From: Candidatus Omnitrophota bacterium
GTDB lineage: Bacteria > Omnitrophota > Gorgyraeia > Gygaellales > Profunditerraquicolaceae
Assembly: GCA_043812955.1 (NCBI GenBank)
Contig: JBDRLN010000018.1
Coordinates: 13,849-77,848, forward strand
Length of the DNA: 64,000 nucleotides
Direction: 5' to 3'
Under the pieces are notes generated by a model. The model saw nothing but the letters and a program-made list of their open reading frames with translations. It was not told the DNA's origin and did not search any database. Both the position numbers and the translations under genes were made by a program. Numbering within the stretch: position 1 is the first letter of the stretch; each line of letters begins with the position of its first letter. Shown one piece after another: positions 4,470 through 57,900 of the stretch.

Positions 4470-4847
4470 TCATTTATTGATTATTGATTTGCTGTTTACC
4501 GAGGCGTCTTTAAACTCCTCTCCCAGGGCCTCTTTAACCTGGGTAACTTTAACCATCCCTTCTTTCAAATCCTTACTGACCAATCTCTCCTGATCCAATA
4601 GCTTTTTGGTCGCCTCATGGCTGGCTTTTTCATTCTGTAATTCCTTATCCTTGGCCATTAGCTGGAAATCCCGGCCCTTTTTTTCGTCCTGTAATTTCTC
4701 TTCAGCCTCAAGACGGGCATACATCTCCTTATCTTTCATATTCTTCTGCTTTTGAATATTTCCGCAGGATTTAATCGTAGTTATTAAAAATACCAACGTA
4801 AGTAAAACCAATATTGGAAAAAGTTTACCCCGGATATCCTCCTCCAT
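4470..4847 (-). CDS. small membrane-anchored coiled-coil protein (FtsB/DivIC-like topology), hypothetical
   Basis: 125 aa with one N-terminal hydrophobic helix (LFPILVLLTLVFLITTI) followed by a charged K/E-rich helical region. Confidence 0.4.
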   Translation of the reverse strand: MEEDIRGKLFPILVLLTLVFLITTIKSCGNIQKQKNMKDKEMYARLEAEEKLQDEKKGRDFQLMAKDKELQNEKASHEATKKLLDQERLVSKDLKEGMVKVTQVKEALGEEFKDASVNSKSIINK

Positions 4848-4970
4848 TTATATCGCCCTCATAAAAACAGGTTAAAAAGGTTAAATAGATTAAAAAAATT
4901 AAGAGGGTTGCGGAAATAAATCCGACAACCTCTTTAACATTCTCAACTTTCTTAACATTCTTAACCTCGA

Positions 4971-30900: not shown

Positions 30901-33900
30901 CATTTTCTCGCTAGCCATATTTTCTAATGCCTGCGGGCTTTGAACTGTGATGCCTAAACCGAATCCATTAAACATCTCGGCATTAATCCCAAACGTCCTA
31001 GCGGCAAAATAGGAAACAAAATAATCATTGCCGATCGAATTATATAGGACATTGCCTCCTAAGACCCCCATTTTTTTCAGGAGATGTAATATTGTAATAT
31101 AGTGTATAAGGGCGTTATCTAATCTTAACTTGTCATACTTAATATAGTCTCTAGTCCTTAACCATGTTAACGTTTGCCGGTCTAAATGAATTTGGTCAAG
31201 TATCCTTTCTATGTCGTTTTCGAAGAATAAACGGTAGAAATATTCCTCATCTAAAGGCGAGCTGGACCCATTTCCACCCCGTAGGTGGAAATGGTTTGCG
31301 GCTGGCGAGCTTCCGACACAAAGCCTGGCGCTTGCCTGCCGGTCAGACAGGGATCCGCCACGTATTGTGGCGCGGGGCTGAAGCACTGGTTCCTCAAACC
31401 AATTCACTATCAATCTACGGGTTCCCGGGATCATCTCGCCACCATTGATGAGAGGGCTCGATGTCGAGGCGGAACGCTTATCCATTAACATTACCTCCGG
31501 GAAACCTTCACTCAGGAATTTTGCCAAAGTTTCAACTGCGAGCTCCGCATCTTCGCCTTCTGCAATAAGCTTTACCTGGGCTGCGCTTATCCATGAATCA
31601 ACGATAGCATCCGCAACCGCTGCCAGCGAATCCAGTATTTTTTTAAGATTTACGGTTTCATTTTTATGTTCTATATAGATACGGGATAAAAATTTATTAG
31701 CTAGCGCCACTAAATTGCTGATATCATGTTCGTGTACTTCTTCGCAATTATCAACTATACATATTTTTTCTATCCTTTTCAGAGTATTTTCTTCAGGTGA
31801 AGATTTTACCGGCGAGCTGGATATAACAAAACTGCTACTATTTACTTCTGCCATTTTCACTTTATCTAATTTATAATAAGTTGTATATACGGGATCAGGA
31901 ATATTAGAAACAATTCTAAAGGGATCTGATTTTTGAAAAATTAATGGGATGCCTAATCCGGCATTATAATTTACTATTTTCAAACCTTGATGTGGTATAA
32001 ATTTAAAATCTCTTCCCCAAACCTTTATACTCCGCAAAATTGTTTTAGGTTTTATGCAAACTAAATTTGCAAATCCTACTCCTTCCGGTTTCAGCCTCCT
32101 TTTAAGAACATTGTAAACTTCCACTCTATCTTTGAAATATTGGCCAACATTATACCCAACCACAAAGATATCAAATAGGCCGGCCCCCAGAAATAATTGG
32201 CCCTCGTTCAAATCCCGCAAAATAAAATTATTCCTAAGGTGTTGAGAGTATCTTTCCGCCCTATCTAGGTCTATTTTCACTCCTAACCTTTGCATAAATC
32301 GGCCGGCTATACTATTTGCGTCTATTTCAACGAGATCATGCTTCGCTAAGGAGTAAAAACTTATCCCCTCTATATTTATTCTTTCTTTTACTTCCAGCAA
32401 AAACATTAATTCAAAAAGTTCATAACCCCTGCCCGGGCCGACCCATAAAATACTGATTTCGGGATTTCTTTTCATACTTTTTTTAATTCTGCTTAAAATT
32501 GACTTATAGAGATGTCCGTCGAATGCTTGGTTAATCTCCCTGAAAAAGTGGCTAATATAACCTTCAGGATAGTTAATCATCGGCGAGGCGGCGGTATTGT
32601 TCCTTATGGCCGAATTGCGACCGGAATGAATCGTTTGATTGATGGATTCATTTTTTGACTCAATGCCAGACAATGGGCTAGATACAGCGTCTACATCTTC
32701 TTTTTTGCTTAAATTTGAAGATATCGATGAAGTAAAGATAAGCCTGTCCACCCAGAAAAAAATCGCCGCGCCGATTAAATTAGCTATGACCGTCGCAAAT
32801 AAGCTGACGCCTAACCACCAGACAACCAACCACAAAACAGGGGTACTCAACTGCCAACGGATAAGATAAAGAATAAACCTTTTTATTGATAGCCCGCTGT
32901 TCGTTTTTTCTGCCGGATTGCTGGATTCTTTCTCTACAGGCGAGGCGGCGGCATATATGTTATTGATTATAAAACTGGCTGAATAAACGGCAGGGTTTAA
33001 AAACGCAGCTTTAAAAATTAGCAGCGGCTTTGGACCTGCCCTGATAGGACAGCTATCCATCAGCGGACTTGAACCGGAGTTTTCCGTAGAATTATCGGTT
33101 AATGTAATAGCCTGGGCCAAGCTCTTGCCTTCCCAAAGTAACCTGGCTACAAAATATTTGGAAGGTACATCGTATGGAAAATAATAATCCAGCGCTCCAT
33201 ACAGCATCTTTCCGTATTTATAAGTCCAAACCGGTTCTCTTGATAGGTTATCCCATAAACTCACCCTGCTCGCATCCAGTAAATATTTCTGCAATATCCC
33301 TACCGGGACAGCGCTGGCGATCAATTCACCTTCTGAGATATATTTACCTTCGGTTTCGGAAGATTTAATCATCTGAGATAATAACCTTTTTTCTTCTAAG
33401 CGTATAAGATTTATTAAATTCGGCAATCCTTCCCGATGAGCCTTTCTCAATTTTCCTGGCCATAACGCGTGAATAAATTCATGGGCAACAGTTAGTTCGG
33501 AATTTAACTCTACTAAATCTTTTGACCAAAGTTTTCTCCGTTTAACCAATATAGTCCAATTGCCAAGCACGGACTTATAAGCTGTCCCTAAACCCGGACA
33601 ATAACCTCTACCTCGACAAAAATCATGTAGCCGATATTTTACATGCATATAAAAATACAAAATAATCGTAGAAATAGCGATGCTGATTAGGATAGAACTA
33701 AATTCGTTGTCCGGGATTAACCCAAAAGGCTTAATTATAAATTCAGCATATGCCCAGAAAACCGTAAAAGCAGGCAACCCCAACAATAAAAACCCGGCTA
33801 AAAAAATAACCGACTCGCCGATAAAACCTACCATGTTTAACCATGAAGTACGCGGCGTATACGGTCTAACCGTAATTGCCGAAATAAATTTTTTAATTTC

Positions 33901-36900
33901 CTCGGTTGGTATCTCCGGATATAGGCGCGCTGCTATCTCTTCCATTTTTTTGCGAGCAGATTTAGCGTATTTTTTTGAAAAAGATTCTAAACCAATCGCC
34001 TTCTCAATAAATGAATCGATCTTCCGCGTCCATAGCGGCGCAACTCCAAAAACTCTATTTGTTACCGGCGAGCTGGAACAGCCTTCAGCTTCGGATATTT
34101 TCTTCTGGCTTAGGCTGGCCAAATCGGCTATAAGCCGATCGAGTTCTTTTTTAAAAGCTTTTCCTGACTCCTGACTCCAGAAATAATTAAATACCTGGAC
34201 TCTGGATAAACCATTTAGAATATCGCAAAGCATAACTGGATCTATTTTCATTAATGGCTTAAGCCGGCAACAAAGATAGAGGTTAATATCGCTAATACTC
34301 AAATTATGAGCGCCTAACCACATCTCGCTATCCCGGATTAACAAACCTATCTCATGCTCTATCCTCGCTCGCCTATCAACTATTTCAATAGCCCTTAAGA
34401 AAATATATAATTTCTTAAAATATTCCCCCAATTTTAGCTGTAAAGCATTCTTTTGTTCTGCGCTGACGGTTTTCTCGCTACTTTTGATATATTGTATGCG
34501 CAGACGAACATTATTAATTAATTCAACCAATATCTCGCCGGGATTATAAATCTTTTCCTGAAAACCAAACTGGGGATGATTTAAAAACTCTTTTAAATCA
34601 CTGGGATAATTTCTGGCCCCAAGGCGTAAATTACTAGATCTTGCTATAACTAAAGCTTTCTGAATAACTCTGTTGTTATCCGCTGAATCTACCATTGTCA
34701 TAACAGAATTTAAAATACCGCTAATACTTACATCGCTACTCCCTTGAAAAATTTCACTCAGTAGCATTTTTTGTTTTTCCCAATCAGCGCCTATTCTGTT
34801 AAATGCCTCTTCAATTAAACGATTAGACAACAAGCTATTACTCTTAGCAGCCGGTGAGCTGGCAGAAACCATGCTTACTCCGATAATTACATCGAATTTC
34901 GCCCCGCTTAACTGTCTTATTTTGGCGTTGATTATTCTATCCATATACCGGTAGTTCTCGGGTAAAAACCTTATCCCATACTTTTTCTCTTCTTCTCTCG
35001 CAAATGCCAAGGTGGTATCGCTACGGAGAAAATTTTTCATCTGGGCTAAGGGGAACTTCGCAGAGAATCCCTTATTTTCAGTAAAAATAAATTTTGGAAC
35101 TCTGCGCTGCCTAATTCCGGAGCCGTTAAAAATGAAGGCTTTGATTGTCTTTACCACATAACCGTCATCTGCTTCTCCAAAATATACGATATTCCTTATA
35201 TTACTGAATCTGGGTTCGGTAAGCACCTGAAGGTGGGGCCTGCGCAATTTCGAAGTTCCGATTACCTGTTGATATAGCTTACGCAGGGTAAGATGGAATT
35301 TAAATTCAAAAACAGTATTATCGCTGATCGCGTCAAATTCCTTGCCCGCCCCCCTCTTATCATAAAAAATCGGGTTAACTGATTGCACAATGCCCAAACT
35401 TATACCTTCTAAAGTAGTCCCTCTTTTGATGATTGCCTCATAAAGCCCGGATATTTCTCCGGCTAGACCCAGGACCTGTCCATTGCCGCTTTCTCCCTTA
35501 TAAACCCCTTCTGCCATTTTAGTAATGGCATTATTAACAGCCGCTTGGACGACAGATTCATTTTTACCCTTATAAACAAACAGCTTCTGCATCTTAAGCC
35601 ATAATCTGTTAAAAGAGAAATCTCTAGCGGCAAAAGCACTGATTACCAGAAGGCATTCTTTTAATTCTTCCGGCAAGGAAGAAGTTTTTATCTGTGTAAT
35701 ATTTTCAAGAAGGCTTTCAAGCGGCGAGGCGGCCGGCGAGCTGACGCCCTCATGGTATAGCCACAACAAATCACTAATTATCTCAGCCTGCCATTCAGGG
35801 ATTAGCTTAAGAAATGACGCATGTGTTACAATTTCATCTGGGGAATTAATTTTTGCTATGCTGTTATCGGAGAGTTTGAGGTTCGTGGTAATATTTAATA
35901 CCAGCTCCGGAGGGGCGCGGGCTTCTTGAGCCAGGCATACTGCCAGCTTCTGCAAACCAGCTCGCGACCCCAGAGCAATCCTACCTTCAGCTAAAATCAC
36001 GCTATATTTACCATTATTCAATTTAAACTTAATCTTAGCAAACAATTCCTTGCCGTATTCCGTTTCTGCCTCCTGCTGATCCTGCGCAGATACATCCAAA
36101 TACGATCTGATCGGCGAATTTACGCCGTAGACGTATCCGCTTCCGGCGGTGAACTGTGCCGCCGGCGAGGCGGCGCCTTGGCGCAAATCAATAAATTCAA
36201 ACCCCTTAGAACTAGCAATATTGGGTAATCTCCAGGGTGTGTTATTATCAAATGGGGCTTGCGGGTTTACGGCTAAATCTAATACCATATCGAACTCGGT
36301 TTTAATCGTACTCCTCACTAAGCCCAGCTTGCTCCAAAAGTCAAACTGACATGGCAGAGCCTTTAAAACAATAAACTTTTGGAGATTTAGACTATGCGCT
36401 TCCTCTATAATTAATGAGCCTATTGCCGAAAAAAGCCCTTTTTCCTGAAATGACGGACTAATATTGATATCCGCACGCCGGTTATCAATAACCATAGCAG
36501 CTTCTCTTTTATCCACGCGGTAATGACAGTAGCCGCAGAAAGGTCGTTCTGTTTCTATAAATTTATATCCTTCTCCCTGATAAAGTTTATCTTGATTAAT
36601 CCTATGTAAATCAATACTGATTAATGCTTCGCTGGGTATTTCCTTTTGCCTTAATGTAAAAAGCTCTTCTTTAATTAAGACAACCAACTGCAACACGCCG
36701 AATTGTTCTTTTTCTAATAACTCAGCGTTATCTAAACTAATTTTAACTGGCGAGCTGGAACCCCTGGAGCCCGATACCGGCAAAGCAGCAGATGATCCGG
36801 CTAGATAGACGGATTCAAAATCCGACTTTCTTTTGCCGCTAGAATTAGTAAACAAGGCTTTGGTGATTGATTCTAAACTAAGGCCGCGGCCATAAAGACA

Positions 36901-39900
36901 GTAGCCCACTCCTTTTTCCAACCTCTCTTCTTTAATACCGAAATGCCGGAATAAACCCGGCTGCTGCAGATAAACATAATATTCATTTACTGAACGCTCT
37001 AAAGCTCTTCTTAACATACAATAAATAAGAAAAGAGCCCAATCCTTCATTCCAATAATCTTCTTTTATCTTTAAATAACTTTCTCGCTCGTGCCCCATTT
37101 TGAGCTCATTTATAAGAATATAAAATAAGATATTTCCTACTCGCGATTCTTTAAAATCAGGCACGTCAACTTTTAGAATTAAATAATGAAATTGTTCACC
37201 TTGGCTTAAATTGATAAAGGTGCGCTTTTCTCTTACTATAAACATCCCTTTCCTGTTTTTTATGCCTCCAATTAGCCTGCCGTCTATCGCCTTAAGCGTG
37301 ATCTGCCTTAGCGCATACTCAAGGCCGTTTCTTTCAACGCCTGAATTGCCCGCCGGCGAGCTGGAAATTGTATTAAATTCTTGGGGACTAAATAGAATCT
37401 TTACGTCCGCGCCCCGATACAAACAGATCCCTTCTCTCCTTCTTATCGTCCGTCTGTTTAACTCTAAACCATACTGTTTCTTATAAATATCTTCCGCTAA
37501 ATCAGCAACTAAATAAGGGTTCCCGGGAAGGAAGTAGTAATCTGGGCCGAATTCTACTAAGATATCGATCATATCTATAAACAGCCTATTTAAACCCGCG
37601 CTATTTACGGCTTTTCTCAAAATAAAAAACTGGGCATAGGCATATTTATGAAAACCTGCGTCATAGATTGTGTTTGAACTTATAAACTTAAACGCTGATT
37701 TAAAAATACAATATGTGAATTCATTTCTTTGCTCCTGTCTAATCTTTAGTTGATTTAGTAGGACAGCCGCTGTAAATTCTGCAACAAATTCCTGTAATCC
37801 GGCAAAGGCTCTATATTTTGAATCAACGGAAAGCGGATTAGAATTATCCTTTAATTTTACAATAAACGATTGATTAGGGAAAAGAGCGTAAAGCCAATTA
37901 TGGCCTATTTCATGCGCGATTATTCTTAGGATTCCTTCAATACCATGGCTCAAATAATAGCCCTTAAGCCTGGCATAGTCATATTTAAAATTCGCGTTGG
38001 CTGTTCCACGATAAGAACCTATATCTAAATTCTGTATAATCTTTTGCGTAATACGCCTAACTATCGCGGGCGTAAATAAGGTATCTAATGACAATAACTG
38101 TACCGAAAGCGCAATATTCCACCCCAATAACTCTTCTTGAATCATTTTTAGCGTATTGTATTTAAAATACCGGTCTATCTTTTCTCGATACTCCATAGAT
38201 ACAAGTTTCTCGTTCAAATCACTCCTTACCAGATCGATTGAACGCCGTAGCAAAAAATTGATCCGCGAATTAATTAATAGGATTAGTTGATGGGTTCCAA
38301 CTGGCCATTTACCAGTTGCCGGCGAGCTGGCCTGCGGCGCCAGCGGCGAAGAAACAAATTCAAATTCTGATGGGTTTCTTTGGACCTTGATTCTTACACC
38401 AAGATGATCCGAGGCCAAGAAGATTCCTCCTTCATTTTTTATAACTTTTAATCCCTCAAATAGTTTCTTTAAACGTTCCTGATTCACTTCATCTGTTTTA
38501 AATAAAGAACGATACTGGGATATATACTCGTTAAAGGTGGGTTTAATGGTAACCGTATCAACAAAATCTCCATTCTCTGCCCAACGAAACACCCTAAAAA
38601 CAAGATTATAAATATACCAAAGAAACATTATCTCTGGATTTATCGCTGCTAACTCATCATCTATGACTTTATAACTACTCTTAAGCCTCCCATCGGGAAA
38701 TTTTATTATCATTTTATTAACATACCCTACAAATTTGCTTACCCTCCATTCAGACACCGGCGGGCTTGAGTCGAGAACCTCATTTTTTTCTATTTCTACA
38801 AATATTTCCGGGTATAGTTTCTTTAACCATGGCGTAATTTGTACGTCATTTTCTTTATAGATCACCTTAAATCTCTCTCCCAATTCTTCCGTAAATGGCA
38901 ATTGCATGCGGCCATCCGCCAAAGAATGGCCCCTAAGTATGAGCTTAAGCGCTGCGTCAGTAAGTTTAAGGCTAACTTTCGGATTTTCATTTTTATAATA
39001 TAGACTTAAAAGATACCAAACTTCACCGATATATATCGGAATATTTAAAGATTCATGATAAGACATATCTGGCTCTCTTTTTATTACCTCATCCGCGCAA
39101 TAGTTAAACATATCCACAATTAAATCTTCCGGCAGCTGACATAGTATAACGAAAAGTTCTTTATGTACGCTTTCACTTTCTAAAAATAGATAATATATAT
39201 TACTAGGATCAATATAATAATAAGCTTTCATGACTTCCCTTACCCACCTTGCCGTACTTTCATAGTCACCCCCTATCTTAAGATTGCGTAGTTTATCCTC
39301 TATTTCTTGAATAGATATTCCTTTGGGTGGAAAAAGATACCGTCCCTCCTTTAAAACGCTCATATCAGGCGTTCCCCATTTCCATTCCCGCTGCCGCCAA
39401 TAGGGATGCATATTAGTCTCAACCGGCGAGGCGGCGGTTTCACTCCTGACCCTGCTTTCATCCGCCGGCGAGCTGGCATAAAGCGTAGATGCCGGTATTA
39501 TTTTTCCGTCTACGGTTGCATCATTACCGCTAACCAATAAAGCAGAATAATCTCTCCGCAGAGAACCAGTAATGGCTCTGTGAAGATGTGCCGGCAAAGG
39601 CACCTCTTCACCCTGTTCTATCAAAACATTCGTAAAAAATATGGCTTCTGCTCTGTGTTGCGTTAACATGCCACTCTGCGCCGGATCTAAGAGATCGATA
39701 TATTTCGGCTCTACCAACGCGCGGATGTTGTTTTTCAAACGACAATAACGCGTGTCGTCCTTTACGATTTCGAAAAAGATATCAAAGTTTTCTTGTGTTA
39801 TACACTCGCAGACATAGGCAAGCTTATAAATACCCATTTTTACCGCGTATAAAAGCGGTATATTTTTATCCCAAGCCTCTATTCCTATGCTCCATGGTAA

Positions 39901-42900
39901 AGAAATAGCAAGGTTATCTTTCGCACGCAAACCTCCCCGTTTACCATAGAGGGCCATCAGGATAGAGTACGGCTGGTCTCCGCGCGAACAACCCAGGGAT
40001 TTTATGGTGAGGTGAAAATCTTTTTTCTTTTGTTTTTCTGGTACGAGCATATTGAGAAAGTTATCTAGATTCCATCGGTCAACGAATCTAAACAATGTCG
40101 ACATTTTCTCAGCTTCATTCAAGGGCACAAAACCGTTAAAAATCGCTCTGGTAATATAGCGGCGCTCTGTAGCATGGTCAGCCCCTGTTTTTTCGAGTAC
40201 CTCCAGATACCCGGTCAAATCGGTCTTCCAAGAACGGGCGCGCGATGCAATAAAATCCTGACATACCTCTGCCAGAAAGACTGGCAGCTCGACAGTAGCA
40301 AGACGGAAACTAAACACGGGTATTGTTTGATTTATGAACTGAGACAGATAATGCAAATCTTCGCCATTAAGAATAAAACGGATAACTTCCTCTGTTTTTT
40401 TATCCGCCGGCGAGCTCCCGCCACAAGGCGTGTCGCCTGCCTGCCGATCAGGCAGGGATCCGCCACGTATTGTGGCGGAGGACTGATCCACCGGTGAGGC
40501 GGCGATCTTAGTTAATTTATACACAAAGATACCGCCAAACGGAGCACTTAAGACGTGGAAACAATCTAAAACAGAATGCCTAAATTTACCTTTAAGTTCT
40601 TTGGCTAACCGCAAAGCAGGCGGATACTGTGAACGTAAATCCGGATAAGGTATTATAATTGTGCCATTTTTCTTAAGGAAGCCGGGAGACTCGGTAATGA
40701 AACGTGAGGTTAACCTGAATTTAGGATCGTGCGTAGCAAGATGTTCCGGTTTCTCAATAGGCATATCTACGAAAGGCGGATCAAATATTATGTAATCAAA
40801 TTTTCTGTCATTAGGAATGTTAGAAAAAAGATCGCTTACGATAGCTTCTGCCTTGTCTTCCAAGCCGGTAATTCTAAAATTCAGGTTAGCATTATCTACT
40901 TGCTCTTTGAATGCGTCAACCGCTAAAACAGAACCGCCCTTCAAGGCGGCTATTATAGCTTGAATGCCGGAGCCTGTGCCCATATCCAAAACTTCCTTAT
41001 TCCTGAAATCCGCCTTATTGAACAGCGCGTTTGCTAATATTGCGGTAATTAACATATCAGGTGGGTATGTTCCCGGAAAACTAACGATTACCGGAACCGG
41101 TTGGTCCGGGAAATACCTTTTGATCCCAAAAACGATTGTGTTTAACTTGAATTGGCGCTTAGTTACTGAAACTACATCCTCTGATTGGCCGGCCGGCGAG
41201 CTGGAGTGTTTCTTTTTTAGGATCTTTTGTTCAAAATATTCTTCTATTATTAATGCCGGGTCGACCGGCAAACTGGATAATTTACTAGGGTTGTCCGCCC
41301 GCAAAACGGCGTCCTGATTAATATCTATCGATACATAAGAATCAGTGTGACTTTTTGATTCACGTAGAATTCCTACTAAACACTTAACAATAACGGTTGG
41401 AATGGCAAAAATTAAATAGAAGGAAAGATAGAACTGCCAGGTAAAATAAGGTTCGGCTGCCACAAGATATAAATCTAGAATAAAAGCCGTAAGCCAGGGG
41501 ATAATGATCAACTCTGAACTCGTAGACCAGTACGTAGAAATAAATTTTAAAACAATAGGATTAATCTTTTCTTTAGAAAAAGATATTTGGATTTCTCCTT
41601 TGAAGAACAACGTCAGAAATGTTTTTAAAGAGATTGATTCCCAAATTATTTCTTGCGGCAATAATTTCTTAAGAGTAAAGGGGATGTGCAAGATTCTCCA
41701 AAGGTTAAAAGTTATCCAAGTTGAAATAAAAAGTGAGCCAAACATTCCATATGTCAATATGAGCGGGCTTTTAAAATTCCAGCCATTAAACCAAAATAGA
41801 AATATTAGATTCGCACTTCCAACAAAACCGCCTACTTCAATCAAAGAAGGCACCATGATCTGGCCTATAAACCACCCTATCTTCGGCAATCCGAATTTCA
41901 TAAATAGTTTTTGAAGGTAGGAATAAAATCGTTGTAAGAACGGCCAGCCAATGAATACTACATTGACTCTTGGTATATTGGAACGGCCAACCGGAGAGCT
42001 GGAGGGGCGCAAATAAATTTCTACCACTGATTTCAATATTTCTATTTGTTTTTGTTCCGGCAATGTAAAAAGGTAGGGATTAATTAAAAAACGTGTTAAG
42101 GAACGGTGGGCTATAATAATATATTCCGGAGGTGCGGTAGCCATATGATAACTAGTCAATATTAAACGATTTTTTAACTTTTCCTTCATGCCGGAGACAG
42201 CGCCGGCATAATTATCGCCATATAATAAATAAATTGATTTGGGTAATCTTAACGGCCCCATTACACTCAGTTTAGAACATTCCTCTTGGACAAATGTATG
42301 GATTATGTCAACCCTAACTCCGAACTTTTGAATTAATCTGCCTGTTATTATATTAATATCAGCAGCATCTACCCTCTTCATCTTTGGCCATAATCTAACA
42401 GATAATAATTCAGTTAACGTTGCCAATTTTATCTTATCATTATTATCTTTGGAAATTTCCGCCGGCGAACTGGAATAAAATAGCTCCCATAAACCTTTTA
42501 TCCGCTCATCTACAGAGACTGCCCGACTTCCGATAAACCAAAGACTGCTCTTTCGGGCATTAGGAAATCTATCATAAACAATACATTTACCTATCCTGAT
42601 AGAATCTCCGATTGCTTTCTTATTTTCTCTAAGCCATCCTGCTAATGAATCGTCATACCTGGATGAATCTTCAGCAAAGATTTCTTTATATGCCCCTGCT
42701 ATTTTGCTAAATTCTTCCTCTAGAATACCAAACCCCCCAGGGTTAGCTGTAATAGGCAACATAAGATAAAATTGCGCGCCGGGCTGATTTTCCCTGTATT
42801 TATGTGCAGCTATACTTTTAATAGCGTTAGCAACGCAGGTAGTTAGGTTACATCCAAATATAATAAAATGTTTCCCGGCAAAGAATTCTTTACGCAGCTC

Positions 42901-45900: not shown

Positions 45901-48900
45901 TTCGGCTATTATTCCTGACATATTCCTTAATCTTATCTCCATCAGCCATTCTTTATCGAAACCTTCTTTAATCTTCTGTATCTTGCCTTTGTATTTGGGC
46001 GTTAAATCTAAACTCTGAGATAGTGATTTTTGGAAACCGCTGCAATCTTCTTCTGTAGGCTCAATAAAACGTATAAGGCCCTGTTTTTTCAGCTTATCTA
46101 AATGTTCAGTTAAGATAAGTTCGCCATCGGCTAATTTTATAATGATCCCATCTTTTAATAATCGTTTTATTTCTTGGGGAGTTCTTGCTTTACCATTTTT
46201 AGTGGTTATTAATTTCATGGGCTCTTCGCAGGTAAGCGGCCTAAAATTTTCCGGGGTAAAATTTCCCGGATCTGACCATTCGCCAATATGGTATAACAAT
46301 CTATCCTTAAGCCGCATTTCCTTAAAGTCTCTGTGCCCATCTTTTATTTTAGTTAGTTCAGGAGTAAAAAGCGTACCCTGAATTGATTTATAATACTTTG
46401 CAATATTCGGAGTCTGGATGGCCTCTATATTAATAAAGGAATCCAGGGCGTAAACATAATGTTTGGCTTCTTTTAGATCCCAAGTTGATCGAGGAATACT
46501 TAAATTATCGCCGCGGTCAAGCAATTTAATTGCCCTGGCATACTTGGAACTTGAGTGAAATATCCTGCTTATAAACTCCTCTTGAGTTTCACCTTTTCTT
46601 TGAGTGAGAATTAAGACTATATTCAATATAAAATAGGCTTTTCTAAACTGTAAAGTTTTAAAAAGAGCGAAACCAAGTTTAAGTATGAACCAACTTATTC
46701 TTTTTCCTGCATCTCTGTATTCTTCTATGGTATCGTGCAAGAGGATTACAGAAACAAAAACATCCAATTGTAGTTTTAGATTATCAATGTCCTGAAAGAT
46801 TCCTTTATCCTTAACAATTTTTGCAACCATACGTAGGAGGTGCATAAGATATGGCTCGCCAAGCGCCTGCCGAAATCCGGGATGAATCTTCTTGGCTATC
46901 TGATAGGAAACTTCGATAAGGTTAATATTAATCCCGGGAGACATAAGTGCCAGATTATCCTTTAGTGCATTAAATTGCTGATCAAGTTCTTGTTCAGTAT
47001 ATTCGCGCGGAGAATATTTCATAAGATAAACCGGTACGGAAATCCTGTCTTTCTCCCAAAATGTTGCCGTGCCCCTGACTACCTCCTTCATTTGCGGGAA
47101 AAAGCTAAACCATTTTTCAGCGGTAGTAAGTAAAAACCCGTTATTTTCAAGCCAATCAAGCATATTACTGGCAATGATAAAAGTCCGAATATGGCCGATT
47201 GGTTTTTGTTCTTTTTCAATCAGGTATTCATAAAAATTATAAAGAATAGCGTAAAACTTCTCCTCCCTTGGAACATCTAGTCGAATATCAATAAATTTAC
47301 GCACATCCTCTTTTATCTGATAAGTCCCCTCTTCTCTTAAATCAAAATAGCGCTTAAGTAGTACCCTGGTTGTCTCGGAGAGATAACGCTCTCTATTTAA
47401 GGTTTTAAAACAATCTACATGATAAATACCTTTTTTTGCTTTATTAAACGCCTTCTTATCGAAATCAAATACCGCAACTTTTAAAATATCGGGGGTAAGT
47501 TCTATTCCTTCCCAGGCCCCGGGATTTTCTCTTCTATCCTCTAGAAGCCAAATGACTACCTGGTGAGCCTCGGCAATAGTGGAAATACCGTATAATTCTC
47601 GTACTGAGCCAAAACTTAAAATTTTAATCTGCTCCCCTGGTTTTGCCTGCGCTAAACGCTTTCTAATTAAAGGAATAACATCTTCTTTAAACAAGCCCAT
47701 TACCTCTTTTCTTTCACCTATACCTACATTAAAGAAGCGATAAGGATACGATACTTCTTCCTTACCCTGAGCCCTCATCTCTTTCGGCACTCCCACTGCC
47801 GATTTTCTTCTATCCTGATTAACCGGCGAGCTAACCGAAAAATTGATTTGGGCTTGAGCGCGCGGAACAATAAATACACTCATATCCCCATAATAATATT
47901 CGGGTGAATCCTGTATTGTTCCAATTACTTTTATTACCTTAAGAATTTCTATATCTTTAGGATCTATATCAATATTTATTTCACTCAATTCATTTAGGCT
48001 AAACCTGCGGCTGTCTTTTTTACGTAAGAGCCAGGCAATCTCTCGGAGCAATTTGCTAAGGCTTTTTCTGTAGGAAATGCAAGAGATAATATCATCGAAA
48101 TCCTTTTCTTCAATCATCGTAAATTTATTGGATAAATTCATAATTGTTAAACAGTTTCTGCCTTGAAGATAAGATCCCCCTCGCTCAAAGGCATTCTTTA
48201 TGTCGTTTGCAGCCGCAGCAAACAAAAGTTTTAAACCATGGATGTCATCCCTGATAGCTAATCCACTAATCCAGCTTAGTTCCGTCTTTACGAGCATCTC
48301 TTCAATATTAGTCAGCCTTATGCTCGCCCTAAGGTCAAAGGCCCGGGCAATATATTTATCCACCGGGAATCTATCTCCTTTTATATTTATCAGGTAGCTT
48401 TTCTGGAATAAGGTGTTTAAAAAATCTTCCGCATATTGATATTCGTTTTTACCGATTAAGGCCTGAATAAGAAAAACATTTACAATAAATTCCCAATTAG
48501 GGGTTACATACTGACGTAATATTTGATCAAATTGAGAAACCTCCAATACCGTCCGATTAAGCTCATCGGCAATATCAAATCCGTGAGCATATAATCTACC
48601 GGACTGAAGAAAATCATCCAAGTAGGCTGCTTTTTCAAAAAGATATGCTACTCTGTCCTCTAGCGTCTGTGAAAACCTGATCGCAGAATTTAAATCTTTT
48701 AACCCCGCCTCAAAGTTACGCATCTTAAGATGGAAAAATGACCTTAAGTGGTAGCCCGCCGGGCATAGATCGATCTCGCCGATGATCTCCTCTGTTTTTT
48801 GAAAAGCCAAGGCAAACAGATCTTCACTCATATCGGCAACTTTTAAGTAATCAAGAATGGGCGCTATATCTTGAGGATCCCATAGAATCAATTCTTTAAG

Positions 48901-51900
48901 CCATTCTAAAGCTAATGAATAATTTCTCTCATATATTGCCGTCCCGACTGCATAATTCAACCTTTCCTTATACTTGTCCTCTACGGGCGAGCTGGAGAAC
49001 CCGGATATCTTTTCTAACAGTAGTTTTTCTAGACTATCCTCTTCTCTTAAAAGACTCCTTATCACCTTCTTAGATCTTTTCCTACGGTAGGCATCTGCTT
49101 TCAGGACTTCCTGCTCAGCTTCATCGCGTTTACCGGAAACATCCTCTAGAGTTTTGAGTCTATTTGAAGTATCAGGCGATTTTATCCCCTGCGTAACCTT
49201 TCTTAATTCGCTTAGGAAACCTACCTCTTCAATCATTTTCTTTGGATCGTTTTCTGCCTGCCAATCCTCAACCCAAGACATCTCAAAAAGCAATTTTACC
49301 TTAAAGTGCTTCCATAAAAATTTGTCTACCTCTGCCTTAACTTTATCTAACTGTTCCAGGAGATTTTTTGGATAAGGTAAGACTGTATTCCTTTCTATAA
49401 CTAAGTAAAATACTTCCGGAGGCTGCCTTACAATAGTAACCTGATAACCTAAATCCTGGTTATTGAAGAACCGGTCTAGGGCTAAATTTAACAATAATAT
49501 CAGGGTATTCCCCGCTTTATGGAAAAAGACTCCCTCAAAAGATTTAAAACCAAAAATATTTGATCCATCATTAGCTTTTCTGATTTGTCTGCTGCCTGAA
49601 GCCTTTATCATATTTTTAAGAGTATCCGGGTCATCGCTGGTATAAGCCGGGTTTAGCCTGCAAAGTGAAATATCTTTTTCAGCCTGGATAAGCTGGTCTC
49701 GTAGAATATAATATAAGGCAATACGCATGAATGAAGGATAAAGCTCTTCTCTTTTATAGGGCAGTCTTTTTAAACCCTGCCCTATCTGGGCTGATTCTTT
49801 AAACAATCCAGCTCTCTCTTCCTCAAAATCTGAATCGCCAATGCTTATTTCTGCTTCAGGAATTTCAACCGATTCCTCTATCAAAACATAAGGTTTATTA
49901 TTTTTGGCTATATCCTGAAGCATAGACCCGGCCTTAAGGATATTCTCGACTAATTCATCTATATTATTTTGCGAGGCAAAACTTGCTGCCCTGGCACCGC
50001 CTATAGGCAATAAAGGAACAGGGACAGGCAAATCAAATTTCCCTCTTAGCTTAAACTTATCTTCGGAATTAACCGCCAAAACTATCCTTTTTAAAGTTTC
50101 TCTCAAAGAATAAAGGCTTCCTCTTTCAAAAAATATAAAATATTTATTCTCTGCCCGGCTACCAACTAACACCGGAAGAATAATGACTTTTTTTACTGAT
50201 TCGGTTTCTTTAAGCTTAGTTATTACGTCCTCACTATTTCCTTTTAATATATCCAAAGACGCTATAGCGTATCTTCCTTTAAAATATTGCATCAGCTCAA
50301 AAAGAATAAGATAGGATATCCTCTCAACCTCTTCCTTCTTATATTTCTTAGGGCTGATACTCAAAATCTCATCGGCAACCAGATGCCTGGTGAATCCGCC
50401 AAACCTTTGCTCAACGCTATCGGCGATCTCTATTGCCTTATTAATTAAAAGATCCATAACCTCCCGGCCAAAGGTATTATTTCTATCGTAGAGTTTTTTC
50501 ATATCGCCAAATTTAACCCAGCAATCGCCCTCCTGCGCCAGGAACTCTTTTAATTCAGTCAGGGCAGTCGGCTTTATAACTCTCTTAAAGAAGGGAATTT
50601 CCTGCTCATAGCCCTCTTCCGCTTCTAACCATTCCACATATTGGCCTATGGCGCAATCTATCTCCTGCCGATACCTCAATTCAATCTCTGAAAGAGTATA
50701 CTTTGTCTTGATGCCATCTATAAAATCAAGCGCTTCTTTAAAAAATTCAAATTCTATTTCTTTTAATTTCTGATAACATTCCGCGGCTTTTTCACCGATT
50801 GTAGAATCAAAATCGTAGTAAGAAAGCTCCTGGAGTTCTCTAAAATAAATCATAACTTCATAGGTATTATCGGAAAATCTTTTGGTAATATCGTAAAGCA
50901 TTGCCACCTGGGGATCTATAAACTCATAATCAAACTCCAGATCTCCGAACTGAATAAGCCCAATACCTTGTTTTATATATTTGCGGTACAGGAGTGTGTT
51001 AATATATATTCTTAATTTGCTGGCAGGAGTAGCTATACTTGCCTGCAAACCATAGTTCTCAATAAATTCAGTATTATTCCTTATCTGCCGAAGGTTACTT
51101 TCTCTTGAGAAATTGATTAATCCAACCCTGACCAATATGCCTATTCCCTTAAGAATCCTTATCGCTTCTCTATTTTGTTCAGGTATTATTCCTTTAGTGA
51201 AATATTTCAACTGGCCAGAATCATTACTCTCAACCCCTAAAAATACTTGCTTAAGGCCTGCCTTTTTCAATAACTCAAACACCTCTCTGCTATCTTCGGT
51301 TACAGCATCGGAACGCGTAAGTATCCAGAAATTTATCCTTAGGCCTCTTTTAATAATTTCATCGGCTATTCCCCTGGCTCTTTCAGGCTGATTACCGATA
51401 AAATCATCATCAACAAAATCTATTCCGGTTATCCCGACTTTTATGAGGTATTCTATTTCATCCACTACTCTTATGGCTGAACGGTGACGCCAGAATAAAT
51501 CCTTGGCCCGAATTAAAGAATTCTCGCGGTTGATACAATGGGCTTCATCAAAAAATTTATGTATGCCGCAAAAGGCGCAAGACCCAGGACAGCCGCGGGA
51601 AGAATCTAACTGGGCTATCTTGGCAAACCTGTCCGTTTTATCATGAACTATTGACCAATCCAAAGGAGGTAATTTATCCAGGTCTTCCGTGGTCAGAACA
51701 TAGCGGGGATTACTGACGATTTCGCCTTGCTGGTTTCTATAAATCACATTTTCTACGCCTTCTAAATCCTGCCTTTCTGATAATTGCTTTATAGCCTTTA
51801 CAAAAGCCAATTCTCCCTCCCCAGCCACAATAAAATCAATATCCGGGAATTCCTTCAAGAAATTGTCTTTGGAAATACTAGGTAAATAGCCACCGGCTGA

Positions 51901-54900
51901 GATGAAAAACTTTCTATTGCTTTTTAATTCTTTAGGCAGGAGACTAAGGAAATTTGTAAGATACGCCTTGTCAGCCGGAAATAAGCTTAAACCCAGGAAT
52001 ATCTCTTCTTGCGGATATTTTACCGAAAGAGCTACAACCTTGTTGGCTAAAGCTTCTGCGGATAAATTAAGCTTATTGGCATCAATAAATTCTACCGCGA
52101 TATCATTTGCTTTTAAGGAGGCGCTGATTCTGGCGAGGCCTAAAGGTTTAACGCTTCTAAGGGAGGCGTGATCGGGATTTATTAAGATAACTACGGGGCT
52201 TGAGGATGGCGGCGCATGCGCAAAAAATCCTTTTTTCTCATTCAACAGCTGATTTAAAAATCCCTCTAAAATAGGGGACGTTTCTATTTTCCTTTGCGCC
52301 GGGGAGCTGGATTTTCTGGCAGTAACTAGGTATTTATTCTCTAGGCTTACCTGTGAATAATGATATACTGCGGGATAGTCTACAGGTATATTCTTACCCT
52401 TAAATAATCTAACGCTGGATGCTTCAAAACCAGCCCCTTTTATAATAACAGCTATCTCTTCGGCTTGAAACCCGTTATCCCGGTCATTGTCCACACTCAT
52501 AAACGCAACTCCGCCTCCGAGGCTGCATACCCGTAAAGACTCCTGTAAAGCTTCTTTTATTGATCCCAATCCTACAGTAGGATTAGGATAATTCAAGGTG
52601 ATAAGGTTAAAGGTGCCATCCCGGAATTCAAGACAGGACCAGTTCATATTCCATATTAAAACAAGGTTCTTCTCCGCAGCAAAGCCGGATAATATCTTTT
52701 CACCGTCATTATCAATGCAAGTAAAACGCGCTCTTTTCCCCCACAGCGTATACCTGGCATCCCTGGCAAAATCGCCAAACCCCGCCCCGATGTCTAAACC
52801 CCAGAGCAAACGCAAGCCCGTATACCTAAGAATATGGTTACAAAATTCGGTGAAAATATTCCAGCCTGCTTTGCCTCTTTTAATTTCAATCCGCTGGTTA
52901 ATTACATACGCTGCCTGCCTGATAAACTCCTGCTTACGGGGGTCGCTTTCGCTTGCCAGAAGAGACTCTAACTCTCCAAGGACGCTCCTACCGACTAAAT
53001 CCACCAAACAAATCATCGCCCGATGGTAAACATATGGCATATCGCTGGATAAAAACAGCTCCAGAAGAATATGTTTAACCTTACTCTTTTGAGTAGAAAC
53101 CTCTCTTTCGCAAATAGCCGCAATCGCATCAATTGATTTTTGCCTAAATGAAAACACGGGATAACTGGCAAATCCGGCAAGAGTACTAAAAGAACCAATG
53201 CTACCGCAATGCTTGAGAGCGTTAATAAATTCCAAAGTTAAGTTAAAATATTTAGAGAAATTACCATCTCTATGTATAGCCTCAAGCGCTTTTAATAACA
53301 CCGCCTCTAAACTAAGGTCTACGCCTTTTACTATAGCAATTTTAGGTATAACAACTTCAAGATACTGTAATTTTTTGATATTCATCCGCACCAGCCCGGA
53401 GGGATTCCTTAAAAAATTTTCCAAAACCGGCGAGGCGGAAGTTTTTTGGACATTTTGTCTAAGGAAATCGGCGAACTGCTTTATTAATCTCCCTTCCCTG
53501 AAGAATCCCAGAAAAATTTTTCCGCTAAGCTGATTATCAATATTATCCCCTAACTCAAGGTATTTATAAGCATTGTCTTTACTTAAAATAAAGTAGCGCG
53601 GAGCAAAGCTCAACAGGACAAGATTTGATAACAAACAGGCGGTACGCTTATTACCTGCAGCAAATAGCTTAAGATGGGTTAATTTAACAAAGCATCCGGC
53701 AGCCAGCAAAAACGACGAGTCAGGACCTAAATTATTTCTGTAATTTCTCATAAACCAATTGGCAAACCTCCTGACTGAGCGGGTAGCGCCTTTATGGTTA
53801 ACCTCTCCGGCAGGCCTAATTGCCAGATTTAATTGATTTAAGAACACGCTAAATTCACCCGCATCCTTAAACTTGGTTTCAATATAATTATTAATGAATT
53901 TACATCCAACAATAAATCCGGCAATTATTTTTATATCCGGGCTAAAGTGTTTAAAAAGTAAATTTTTAGCGCCTTGATTAATCTCCGGCCAACTAATTGA
54001 TAATTCGCTAAGCTTATCGAAAACCAATCCTAAATCTATTCTTCCTTTGAGCGAACCCGCAGAGAGCATACTAAAACAAAAATTACTAATCGCGCGCAAG
54101 GTTCTTTCATCTTTTCTCCGTAACGCGCTTTCGTGATCAACGCCTTCAATTCTTCTTACTGCCGGCATGCCAGTATCCTCGGGATCAAAACTGATCAATT
54201 CAGTTATGCCGTCCGTATTTGGGGTAGCTAAATGATCAAATATTTTTCCAATCAGCCCTTTCTTCACTTCGGGAATAATCCTGCCTTCTTTAGTAAAAGT
54301 ACTGATGATTAATGCTTCCCCTTTTCCCCAATGCCTAAGCCTCTTTTGAATATCTTCTAAAAGGGCCGTATTCTCCGGCCTCCCCTTTATAAGCTGGCGG
54401 TGTATTCCCTTGCGAGGATCCCTTATCTTAGCTAAAGAAAGTAAATCCCAAAATAAAGGCATCTGCAACCTCATCCATCGAGATATTCCTTTACTGAAAG
54501 AGAACGCCGGATTAACCAGCACTAATCCATCCACCCCTTTATTTTTTAAAAATTCGCTGTTATAGGAGGCTAAAACCCCTCCGAAACTTTCGCCGATTAC
54601 TATTATCTTAGGATCTTTAGGATAAGGTTGAGTTTCAAAAATTCGCTCCATTATCGGGATAAAAATACTTTGGCTTATATCTTGAATGTTCATGAGTATA
54701 TTCTTTGGCTTAAAGTCAGCGTGAGGAAAAGAGATTACCGCAAATCCCAGCCCTAAAAAATACCTTAAGAATGAATCTTCCTGCCAAGAGATAAGATCGT
54801 AGTAGGGTAGATATAGCTGGCGCATCTTAGGGCGAAAGATAGACCGCAGGAAATTATAGGCATCCAACACCCTCTTACCGTGAACATATATTATAGTTAT

Positions 54901-57900
54901 GCCGACAGGGTTAGCCGGCGAGGCTATTCGAAATATAAACTTTTTTCCCGAGACTTCAAATTTATACGGATAAGGTAACGCTTCAGCTTTTTCGCCCTCC
55001 AGCGGCGAGCTACCTAATTTATGGGAGTTGGAGCAGCTACTAATTTTTTGATTATTTTCTTTCCTTTGCGCAATTTCATCCAAAATGGTTAAATTATTCT
55101 TAAAAGAAGGATTTTCTAAAAAGCTCATTTCTTTGGCTTTCATAACTAAAATAGCTGTTAAATCCGGATTTACTGATATATTTTTATAGGCAAACCCGCC
55201 TACACATTCAATCGGCAACCTACCATTAATAAACCAATATTTACCTTTCCTCGCAGGCACAAGGCCTTTTTCTTTCAAGCCAGTCCTGTTAAATAATAAA
55301 GTTACTTCTTTACTGCGTAAATAACGGTCATCATCGTCTTCCCAAGAATCAAATAACCAAACATCTAACATATACCCGCTATTTAAAAATTTTACGAGAG
55401 ACTCTTCGTCGGTGTTATGAAAAAAATATTCGATAGATCTATGTAATTGAGCGCTATTTAAAATACCCCCGTCATTTACCGGCGAGCTGGAAGATTGTTT
55501 CTTGAGTTCATTCCAATCAATTGTTTCCCGGCCTCCGGTTTCTTTAATGGTCAGCAGGTGCTTAGACTGTATTGCTGCTGTAAGAAGGCCGCTCAAAACC
55601 TCAATTCTCTTTATCAAACGCGGCATTACCTCGATAAAGCTCGCAACATCATATGTCTCTTTCAGGGTAGCAACCGTTAACCAAATCATTTGAGCCGTAA
55701 CACCCAAATCCAACGAAGAATCCCAAAGTAACGGCAAATCCCGTTTAGCCTGCTCCAGGAAGCTCGCCTGGCCATTGCCTAAATCTGTTCCGCTTGCCAT
55801 TAATCGAATAGCGTCTTTAATTTCATCGGCGTTTTTCTCGACTTCTTCGCAAAGCGAGACAGATTTAACCTGCAAAACGCTATTCTTAATTCTAACTACC
55901 TGTTTATTCAAACCATCCACAAAGGCCTGGAGTTTAGTAAATTCCTCATCGGAAAGCGGCGAGGCGGCGGAATATGTAATATTGACAATTGGACTGGCTG
56001 AAAATACGGTAGGGCTTGAAGGAATAACTAAAGGAGATAATTGTGGTTTTGGCCCTGCCCGGGCAGGATTTATCGTATTTGAGTTAAGTAGGGGTAATAT
56101 TATATTTTGCGGATTAATTACATTAACAATTGGGCTACTATTAGCTATGTCTATTGCCAACCGGGTTGCTACTGAAGCGCCGCACGGTCTCTTGGAATAA
56201 AAAGTAGAATTTCTAGATTGCTCTAGCGGCAGATTGGAATGGCTGGCTGCCAATGGACTTGAGCCGGATGAGTTCTTGGAAAGCATACTATTCGTAAGTT
56301 CGAGCTTAATAAATACTGCCTGTTTATCCTCAGCTTGCTCTAAACTATCATACTTTCTTTTTGCGCCAGAATGAACGATGATTTTATAAATCCGCCCTAA
56401 CTTAAATTCCCCTATTGTAAGGCTTGAAATAGGGATATAGGCCACGCCATAATCGCCTTCTTCGCTGATTGTATACATCCAGGGATTACGGCCAAGGTCG
56501 ACATCTGAAATATTACAAATCCAAACTTCATCTTCATCTAACAAACTGACAAAAATGTTTATTCCTGCCTGCGTCTTGGGAAAGATAATTTTTAAAAATT
56601 TATAGCGGCGTAAATCCTTAAATGGTTCATCATTTCCATTTTCATCTTTCGGGCTATTCTTCCAGCAAGAGAACTCTCCATTTTTGGACGCTGTATCATC
56701 AAATCCTTTGGCAATAATTTTTGCCGGCAGAAGAGCTTTAGCTGATTCCCCGCGTGCCACATTAACAATAGCAGGATACTTAAAAGCCACTGCTCCAACA
56801 ATTACGGCCTTTAAAAGCTGTCTGCGGGTTAAGACCTTTGAATTAAATGAATCAGTGCCAAAACTAAGCGGCGAGGCGACGGATGGCGAACTGCTTACAC
56901 GCGCAGGCGAGCTGGCGACGTAAGCGCCCTGAGATTCATTTCCGTAATATTTGCCAAAGGCAAGAATAAAACTCGTCCTTATATTCTCCAGATATCTCCG
57001 GCAGGGCGATAACCAATACTCTTTGTCCCGACTCTGCCAATACTGTTTCTGGGGTGAATCTATCAAAGTTATATAATCAAATTTAAACCCGTTTTCTTTT
57101 AACTTCTTCAGGAAATTATCTATCACTTCAGGCAGGTTTTTTGGATTCACATACTGAAGCGCATCCAGGTCTATACTCAACACACGGTAAATGCGCGGCG
57201 AGGAAATCTTTTCTTCTGGCGGGTGTAACGCAGTAAAACTCAAGGCGGTTTCGGTTATCCTGCGCTGCATTAACACTCTCCCCCCCGGCATATTTTCCTG
57301 TATATCGATAAGAAATCTTCCACTGCTCTTCATATCTACGCTCACCGGCCAATATCCACGACGGGTATTAACCAACATTGCTTCTAATACAATATTATCC
57401 CGGTAGAAGTTACTGCCAGTAATAGGCAAATCATATAACTTCACTAAAGTGCCCTCGATCACCAGAGGACCTATCCATAACCCAGGGGAACGCATTCTGG
57501 CATAATGACGTATTGTCTCTATGTCCGCCGGATTAATAAAGTAAGGGCATTGTTTAAGCTCTCCGTTTAACCAGCGCTCCAGGAGTTCCCGGTGTCGGAA
57601 ATACCGGTCGTTTCGTATGTCAAGACGTTCATTCTCAACCCGGCCTTCGTCAACCCATCTAAAAAATGCCATTTCTTTCGTTTTCTTATCCAGTAGTTCA
57701 TGCAACAATGGCGGAGTAGGAGCCCCCGGATTTCTGTCGTCATGCTGATCCGTGTTGTAAACCACAAAAACACCACCCTCTCTCAGTCTTATTTCGGTAA
57801 GAAGGCCGTATAAAAGATTATGGTCTGCGAAAGAGAATACGGATATCCCATTACATTGATAGAGCTTGATATCATTTCCGTAGGGGCAAGGGAGTTCTAT

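Follow-up and report, generated by a model that had tools for sequence, protein, structure and literature searches.

Family G in a giant open reading frame

We analysed a stretch of 64,000 nucleotides from a Candidatus Omnitrophota bacterium (assembly GCA_043812955.1, contig JBDRLN010000018.1), called the window in the following, with emphasis on family G, a repeated element that occurs three times within a giant open reading frame (ORF) on the minus strand. The frame of this ORF stays open from position 63975 to the end of the window without an in-frame stop. The TTG start listed for 63975 is produced by the edge of the window; the gene exceeds 13,005 codons and has its true start beyond the window, since the frame is open at the edge and the homologue of the first module in P0005, a giant fragment of 5,534 amino acids from a JGI metagenome, extends further N-terminally. 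All three G copies lie in frame in this one ORF and encode the peptide that an earlier note on this DNA had read from the letters. The ORF, the copies and their conserved blocks are located as follows:

24958..64000, minus strand: giant ORF holding all three G copies (24958-63975 in the ORF list, at least 13,005 codons)
55957..56142, minus strand: G copy A, the fullest form, amino acids 2612-2673, NSSP-IVNVINPQN-IILPLLNSNTIN-PARAGPKP-QLSPLVIPSSPT-VFSASPIVNITYSAASP
44911..45021, minus strand: G copy B, amino acids 6319-6355, TSSP-VINVENPQN-TFLISHS-VFSANTIINNIYSAASP, without the RAGPKP middle block
32938..33075, minus strand: G copy C, amino acids 10301-10346, GSSP-LMDSC-PIRAGPKP-LLIFKAAFLNPA-VYSASFIINNIYAAASP, without the NVxNPQN block
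55957..56007 (A), 44911-44961 (B) and 32938-32988 (C), minus strand: C-terminal block with canonical AASP, invariant columns V[FY]SA[SN]xI[IV]N[NI][IT]Y[SA]AASP
56104..56139 (A) and 44983-45018 (B), minus strand: N-terminal block SSP(I/V)(V/I)NVxNPQN, common to A and B only
56044..56067 (A) and 33025-33048 (C), minus strand: middle block P(A/I)RAGPKP, common to A and C only

The G cassettes are 37 to 62 amino acids long, rich in Pro, Ser, Asn and Ile and almost uncharged. A low-complexity stretch of these four residues had been noted around the copy at 55959, which agrees with the composition of copy A: its 62 residues include 11 Pro, 10 Ser, 8 Asn and 8 Ile, which together make up about 60%, and just two charged residues. 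The copies form a mosaic of blocks, in which copy A comprises every block, copy B is devoid of the middle one and copy C of the first. On its downstream side each copy is bordered by a canonical AASP and on its upstream side by a degenerate SSP with non-canonical codons (AGT AGC CCA, AGC AGC CCT and TCA AGT CCG); copy A additionally holds the degenerate SSP/ASP motifs NSSP, PSSP and SASP. With a canonical end, a degenerate start and unrelated modules on either side, G can indeed be described as an extended form of the linker, as had been supposed. The tetrapeptide GPKP of the middle block is found three times in the giant protein, compared with roughly 0.1 expected according to a rough estimate from residue counts. 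The sequence NRLGPKPSSP (27676..27705, minus strand) adjoins a junction and may represent a fragment of the middle block left from a fourth copy, too short for testing.

The linker word GGCGAGGCGGCGG, which on the coding strand is CCG CCG CCT CGC C and in frame encodes (A)-A-S-P, starts at 32939 in copy C, at 44912 in copy B and at 55958 in copy A. Of the starts given in the earlier note the first was exact, and the other two, 44916 and 55959, were close to the actual positions. Copy B is present where it had been placed, but extends about 50 nt further than assumed (44911-45021) and includes an upstream block in common with copy A. Counted from the linker start, all three pairs show an ungapped identity of 77-78% over 60 nt, in accordance with the approximately 80% proposed initially, and the pair A-C one of 64% over 122 nt. 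In the codon register, the copies agree in 59-62% of the 66 nt that precede xAASP. When the 13-nt GGCGAGGCGGCGG prefix is masked, the similarity does not collapse to background: the next 47 nt are still 72-75% identical, while the background, estimated in codon register from 20,000 in-frame pairs drawn at random from this gene, is 27±6% and 50% at maximum. The copies are collinear at the codon level, and a self-comparison of the protein by BLASTP recovers all three pairs with E-values of 8e-7 to 8e-5. A chance similarity between low-complexity stretches, which the biased composition with its high share of Pro, Ser, Asn and Ile might suggest, is thus contradicted by both the masked identity and the BLASTP values, and we consider its probability practically negligible.

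The modules adjoining family G

The protein is divided by a short junction with the consensus [S/A/G][S/A]SP[V/A/L]. The tripeptide [AS]SP occurs 71 times in the giant protein, compared with 5.8±2.3 times in shuffled sequences, and five times in the 7,584 residues of the neighboring genes. Each border between modules of the giant gene carries the junction [S/A][S/A]SP[V/A/L]. None of the Pfam domains straddles a junction, and of the 50 ends of homology blocks in BLAST comparisons of the giant protein with 15 other proteins, 28 are situated within 10 amino acids of a junction (10.5% expected, p = 3.5e-15). Many borders are compound and consist of a junction, a short spacer and a second junction; about 28 spacers of up to 64 residues were counted.

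Pfam analysis of the giant ORF revealed only scattered and differing enzyme domains: S-adenosylmethionine (SAM)-dependent methyltransferases at at least six sites, a Polbeta nucleotidyltransferase, a Glu/Leu/Phe/Val (ELFV) dehydrogenase, a B12-binding domain together with a radical SAM domain, and HPr. Weak, sub-threshold matches were obtained for TPR repeats and for an alpha/beta-hydrolase (Hydrolase_4, S33 aminopeptidase family, 22.5 bits compared with a cut-off of 27). In addition the protein contains three pairs of hydrophobic helices, and copy C of G is positioned between two transmembrane-helix pairs. The HPr match (amino acids 10736-10822) is enclosed in a segment with KSSP at one end and TSSP at the other, and the Glu dehydrogenase and the B12/radical SAM modules are likewise confined within junction-bounded segments. 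The self-comparison of the protein detected just two duplicated modules, so that the chain represents a mosaic rather than an array of repeats. In total the giant gene strings together about 45 modules, which are unrelated and evolve independently. SSSPV directly precedes every copy of both duplicated modules. The segments concerned are:

31453-31794: HPr phosphocarrier segment, amino acids 10728-10841 (114 residues)
36750-37400 and 29720-30340: internal module duplication 1, amino acids 8871-9087 and 11212-11431, 55% identity
47821-49035 and 24961-26145: internal module duplication 2, a C-terminal TPR-like module, amino acids 4983-5365 and 12611-12998, 33-35% identity

The earlier note had assigned the three G copies to module boundaries. 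This holds for segments defined by the linker, but these are not repeats of the nonribosomal peptide synthetase (NRPS) or polyketide synthase (PKS) type. An NRPS/PKS reading was rejected, as the ORF contains neither condensation, adenylation or thiolation nor KS, AT or ACP domains of Pfam and the modules are mutually unrelated. The modules that flank the three G copies are unrelated to one another as well (Smith-Waterman z < 2.5). A membership of G in a larger duplicated module was ruled out on account of the dissimilar flanks, and G was consequently not carried along by module duplication.

Family G appears confined to one gene

Profile searches with G, whether the junction word was included or not, retrieved only the three copies from the 64-kb window, and the next matches had E-values of at least 0.2; for the prefix-masked profile the next match (E = 0.2) is located on the opposite strand. 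Within the window, all G copies found belong to the ORF and its strand. The source genome is absent from the GTDB representative set, and the search of its own genome covers the 64-kb window. Beyond the window, G is absent from about 34 related giant-protein fragments of Candidatus Omnitrophota (best score 1.5 bits), has no match at E <= 10 in 5.8 billion (5.8e9) protein clusters, and was detected neither in the GTDB representative genomes nor in IMG/VR, the PDB sequences or the Pfam families.

Relatives of the surrounding modules do exist. An exhaustive HMMER search with amino acids 6118-7317 yielded 20 relatives, the closer of which are large fragments from metagenome-assembled genomes named Candidatus Omnitrophota or Omnitrophica by NCBI, and for a module neighboring G the stand-alone homologs P0006 (199 amino acids) and P0012 (255 amino acids) were identified. 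A word-indexed protein search with amino acids 2001-7000 at E <= 1e-10 gave nothing, although HMMER finds modules with 61-71% identity; the empty result is a false negative of the prefilter, and indexed negatives on long mosaic queries are not trustworthy. The search around copy C returned no relatives, and exact matching of one of the neighboring genes gave no hit. A GTDB scan with the C-terminal module gave no match with the derived peptide patterns, which were too strict, and a JGI metagenome scan gave a single weak radical SAM match (L001).

In the relatives, the homologs of the modules that follow copy A and copy B are preceded by a plain junction without G. At the homologous junction, P0002 reads '...GVFASSP|ISDEESAKLQAFVDGLN', compared with '...ITYSAASP|LSDEEFTKLQAFVDGLN' in the gene described here; further plain junctions of this kind are 'VSSPAASPV...IQQQYNDPV' in P0001 and 'ASSPIGLTMLRRIQRQYNDPV' in P0002. 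Other extensions of the junction occur in the related giant fragment P0001, which derives from the locus L004 and carries Peptidase_S8 and Bac_transf domains. Its private extended junction WSSSPVEKIVG is encoded by 30 nt that are 100% identical at 735-764 and 4857-4886, and a second family, FK..K.GWSSSPV, is located at 2447-2489 and 4829-4871. Extended junctions thus seem to occur generally, though each gene has its own.

These distributions bear on the suggestion of the earlier note that the long copy may be the ancestral unit of the linker, from which the short [S/A][S/A]SP junction would have arisen by erosion. G does end in the canonical junction word and holds degenerate SSP/ASP motifs, and a faint upstream resemblance is discernible at two ordinary junctions, NNTAASP (32581-32614) and GINSASSP (58024-58088), with E-values of 0.4-0.5. 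However, the graded series from short to long linkers that the suggestion implies was not found: there are three copies only and no intermediates, and at the other 68 junctions the preceding 66 nt show background identity (mean 26%). Moreover, the short junction is common to several Omnitrophota assemblies, none of which contains G, and the private extensions of the relatives differ from it. We regard an ancestral long form as very improbable. Since the short junction spans several genomes and G is restricted to one gene, parsimony would make G a derived, lineage-private cassette.

Probable constraint on the peptide rather than on the nucleic acid

For the determination of the level at which the copies are conserved, the ratios of nonsynonymous to synonymous substitutions (dN/dS) were calculated according to Nei-Gojobori. 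The blocks of A and B give a dN/dS of 0.29 (dS 0.92) and those of B and C 0.51 (dS 0.52), whereas the pair A-C, which takes in the middle region, is near neutral (0.74, dS 0.62). Broken down by block, the values are 0.38-0.51 for the C-terminal block and 0.18 for the 13 codons of the N-terminal block; the duplicated enzyme module of the same gene gives 0.37 at a dS of 0.91. A neutral decay of G, which evenly spread differences among the codon positions had indicated, was overturned by the dN/dS values below 1 in the end blocks. The synonymous sites are heavily diverged, with proportions of synonymous differences (pS) of 0.38-0.57. The copies are old (dS 0.5-0.9), about the age of the duplicated enzyme module, and judging by the substitution ratios the end blocks appear to be under mild constraint at the peptide level.

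A different explanation is that G is a specific peptide signal, either an extended site for a processing protease or an Asn-rich, beta-strand-prone zipper (IINNIY) that associates parts of the chain or whole chains. The end blocks, with dN/dS of 0.18-0.5 at dS 0.5-1.1, are conserved similarly to the enzyme module, and V-F-S-A-x-x-I-I-N-N-I-Y alternates by inspection between hydrophobic and polar residues. Proteolytic processing of such proteins has been proposed (West-Roberts et al., bioRxiv 10.1101/2023.11.21.568195), and the Peptidase_S8 module of P0001 would be in line with it. On the other hand, no clear peptidase domain was detected by Pfam in the 13,005 residues within the window, the sub-threshold Hydrolase_4 (S33) being the sole match, and three copies do not suffice for defining a motif. 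G occurs in one gene only, and in the relatives a plain junction serves the same modules. Neither of two structure models predicts a strand in G: in an AlphaFold2 model of amino acids 6118-6560 copy B forms a coil with the lowest predicted local distance difference test values (pLDDT) of the model (21-24), between an all-helical module on one side and a mixed helix/strand region with a weak methyltransferase match on the other, and copy A modelled alone is a coil with a pLDDT of 43-51 and a predicted template modelling score of 0.12. We consider a peptide signal unlikely.

The third possibility considered is that G acts as a nucleic acid, as an in-frame relic of an element resembling repetitive extragenic palindromic (REP) sequences or miniature inverted-repeat transposable elements (MITE), or as an mRNA structure which processes or stabilises the 39-kb transcript. 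It is suggested by two further spacer families of the same gene, both of which consist of tandem GC-rich hairpins:

40390-40512, 31285-31404 and 26860-26994, minus strand: spacer family 2, '...SSATIRGGSLPDRQAGDTPCGGSSP', built on a pair of GC-rich hairpins, GCCACaatacGTGGC and CTGCCtgatcGGCAG
59266-59400 and 26170-26304, minus strand: spacer family 3, 'LGHSVRFGSDSVS.L...AWQG', with the hairpins GGACAcagTGTCC and CGGACAgcgTGTCCG and the common stem GGACA/TGTCC

The copies of family 2 share 81-86% of their nucleotides. With a dS of only 0.12-0.37, families 2 and 3 behave in the opposite way to G, and family 2 looks constrained at the nucleotide level, in contrast to family G. Perfect hairpins in the ORF are moreover enriched close to junctions, with 16 of 22 at a distance of at most 65 nt (19.5% expected, p = 1e-7), and a perfect palindrome of 14 nt, CCTGCCCGGGCAGG, is part of the middle block of copy A. 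This palindrome is not kept in copy C, however, and G folds on either strand no better than shuffled sequences (z -1.5 to +0.85) into structures that differ among the copies. Unlike families 2 and 3 its synonymous sites have diverged, the whole window has no match in Rfam, and within the window G is found neither outside the ORF nor on the opposite strand. Secondary structure of RNA or DNA was accordingly rejected for G, and a role as nucleic acid appears quite improbable.

Family G as a probable spacer cassette

We interpret family G as a lineage-private, non-enzymatic spacer cassette of a multi-enzyme giant gene, which likely serves as a flexible tether, and assign to this interpretation a probability of about 0.55. 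The in-frame recombination anchored at junctions that shuffles the modules would also have duplicated G inside the gene, and G may subsequently have lost or swapped internal blocks. In this way it would have been set at three borders with mutually unrelated neighbors, where it lengthens the junction. In the protein it would most likely act as a longer flexible tether, while the end blocks SSPxxNVxNPQN and VFSAxxIINxxY-AASP resemble short linear motifs and could be sites of contact or recognition.

Several points weigh against this interpretation. The copies with their borders and block mosaic, their restriction to this gene, the position of the junction at module borders and the want of a confidently predicted fold are observations, whereas the mode of copying and the role as tether or motif are reconstructed, and a recombination event that involves G was not directly observed. 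A purely structural tether needs no conserved end blocks, which makes a more specific role possible. The dN/dS values derive from 13-33 codons in blocks that were picked for aligning, the structure models were computed without a useful alignment and their low pLDDT is weak evidence for disorder, and the number of only three copies holds for the 64-kb window alone.

Flexible interdomain linkers rich in Pro, Ser and Thr are known, for example, from cellulases and from between the modules of PKS and NRPS. Like these, G is located between independently folding and evolving modules, is rich in Pro and Ser, has few charges and no confidently predicted fold, and varies in length and presence among homologous junctions. 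In contrast to ordinary linkers it is a recognisable, repeated cassette with conserved end blocks, and its terminal junction is fixed at the codon level (TCC AGC TCG CCG G) across species. From the linkers of NRPS and PKS it further differs in that the ORF encodes no domains of these systems. REP elements and bacterial interspersed mosaic elements (BIME) are palindromic repeats, typically intergenic, which occur on both strands in many dispersed copies. Spacer families 2 and 3 are similar to them as tandem GC-rich hairpins conserved at the nucleotide level, whereas G has no conserved hairpin and all spacers described here are in frame within an ORF. The absence of a shared fold, together with a pS of 0.38-0.57 at dN/dS below 1, also distinguishes G from REP/MITE-like elements.

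The short junction and its codon word

Examples of the 71 junctions spread between 24958 and 63975 are:

32582..32594, minus strand: plain short junction TAASP, GGCGAGGCGGCGG on the plus strand, 357 nt from copy C
39425-39437 and 41193-41205, minus strand: further junctions

The junction is conserved in its codons and not only in its amino acids. The Ser preceding Pro is encoded by TCG in 47 of the 71 junctions, while elsewhere in the gene TCG is the rarest Ser codon (65 of 835), and the Pro is encoded by CCG in 50 of 71 compared with 33% elsewhere. Three successive Ser positions prefer three different codons in the fixed order TCC-AGC-TCG, which results in the preferred codons TCC/GCC AGC/GCC TCG CCG followed by G. 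The motif GGCGAG[CG][TC]GG is present 23 times on the plus strand inside the gene and not once elsewhere in the window. The same preference is found in the relatives, whose junctions use TCG in 27 of 40 cases (elsewhere 45 of 470 Ser codons) and, for Pro, CCG in 31 of 40 (elsewhere 86 of 252), and the 13-mers TCCAGCTCGCCGG and GCCGCCTCGCCGG dominate both in the window and in L002 to L004, three relatives belonging to separate assemblies.

Because three different Ser codons follow each other in a fixed order, the pattern represents a nucleotide word and not a tRNA effect, and a general pause at rare codons is unlikely as its sole cause. Internal translation starts after each junction were also rejected, since the codons at position +1 (GTA, GTT, GCG, CTG and others) are not consistently start codons. 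The fixed codons fit a continual regeneration by recombination between junction words, a recognition site at the nucleotide level, or a codon-specific translational event.

In polymorphic toxins, junction motifs such as VENN in CdiA and PxxxxDPxGL in Rhs proteins demarcate swappable C-terminal modules. The short junction, though not G, is comparable insofar as it is conserved in its nucleotides and sits where the homology between genes stops. It differs in that it is repeated about 70 times inside one gene instead of occurring once and in that the word has only 13 nt. The modules are metabolic or modifying enzymes and not toxins, and neither orphan cassettes nor immunity genes were seen; downstream lie genes for PilZ, CheR, MsbA and the lipopolysaccharide/Kdo pathway.

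The recurrent junction motif, the linkers and the repeated spacers find no mention in the two papers on giant genes (bioRxiv 10.1101/2023.11.21.568195; 10.64898/2026.06.07.730766), and the Ser-Ser-Pro junction seems to have been undescribed so far. Rather tentatively, Omnitrophota giant genes may use it as a dedicated junction code, either as an in-frame recombination joint for the shuffling of modules or as a mark for cleavage or recoding. If this is true, the recombination joint would be a bacterial analog of exon shuffling, by which enzyme modules are gained, lost and shuffled, while cleavage or recoding marks would yield many proteins from the giant product. Family G, like the remaining private extended junctions, would then represent either footprints of this process or extended sites recognised in it. 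G by itself is a minor feature, an ordinary kind of low-complexity spacer, and its value consists in pointing to the junction system. How the giant genes of Omnitrophota are assembled and whether their products are cut are the questions on which the junction bears. According to West-Roberts et al. (bioRxiv 10.1101/2023.11.21.568195), a piecewise structure prediction of giant proteins was blocked because their cleavage points are not known. The junction rule divides the 13,005-residue protein into units which match Pfam domains, stand-alone homologs and homology breakpoints; it offers a practical segmentation of giant proteins for annotation and structure prediction and yields hypotheses on module shuffling and processing.

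Related giant genes, module turnover and gene neighborhood

The gene agrees with the multi-enzyme giant genes reported from Omnitrophota, namely the giant proteins of the Archaeovorin type (West-Roberts et al. 2023, bioRxiv 10.1101/2023.11.21.568195) and the class of 'multi-enzyme metabolic cluster' giant proteins (bioRxiv 10.64898/2026.06.07.730766). Like these it is a single uninterrupted ORF of at least 10,000 codons (here 13,005, open at the edge) with many different enzyme domains, including methyltransferases and radical SAM enzymes, and no dominant repeat; almost no sequence is common between genomes, as both papers report. Its nearest relatives are annotated as Candidatus Omnitrophota and one of them is syntenic. 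In contrast to the described proteins, no glycosyl hydrolase or transferase, NUDIX, C39 or S8 peptidase or SecA-like domain was detected in the part within the window.

The order of the modules varies among the genes; in P0002, for instance, the homolog of segment 48 is directly followed by the homolog of segment 30. Positions 1-26145 of the window are syntenic with L002 (GCA_018824565.1, JAHJFM010000053.1), which contains the 3' end of a giant gene followed by PilZ, PilZ, CheR/ComFB, MsbA, PfkB and KdsB. The giant gene of L002, with 7,224 amino acids in its fuller copy P0024, has three modules in common with the window gene: the last one with 65% identity, the alpha/beta-hydrolase with 51% and one more with 33%. 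That only three modules are shared in spite of the synteny implies a massive module turnover between related genomes.

Spacer family 3 has a homolog at the protein level in residues 2450-2479 of P0005, an otherwise unrelated giant fragment, after a SSSSP junction (E = 4e-5). A perfect stem of 11 bp with a 5-nt loop, CCATTTCCACCtacggGGTGGAAATGG (31268-31294), is located inside a 16-residue spacer between two junctions. Downstream of the giant gene, ordinary Gram-negative genes encode PilZ, CheR/ComFB, MsbA, PfkB, KdsB and a SIS+CBS protein of the KdsD type.

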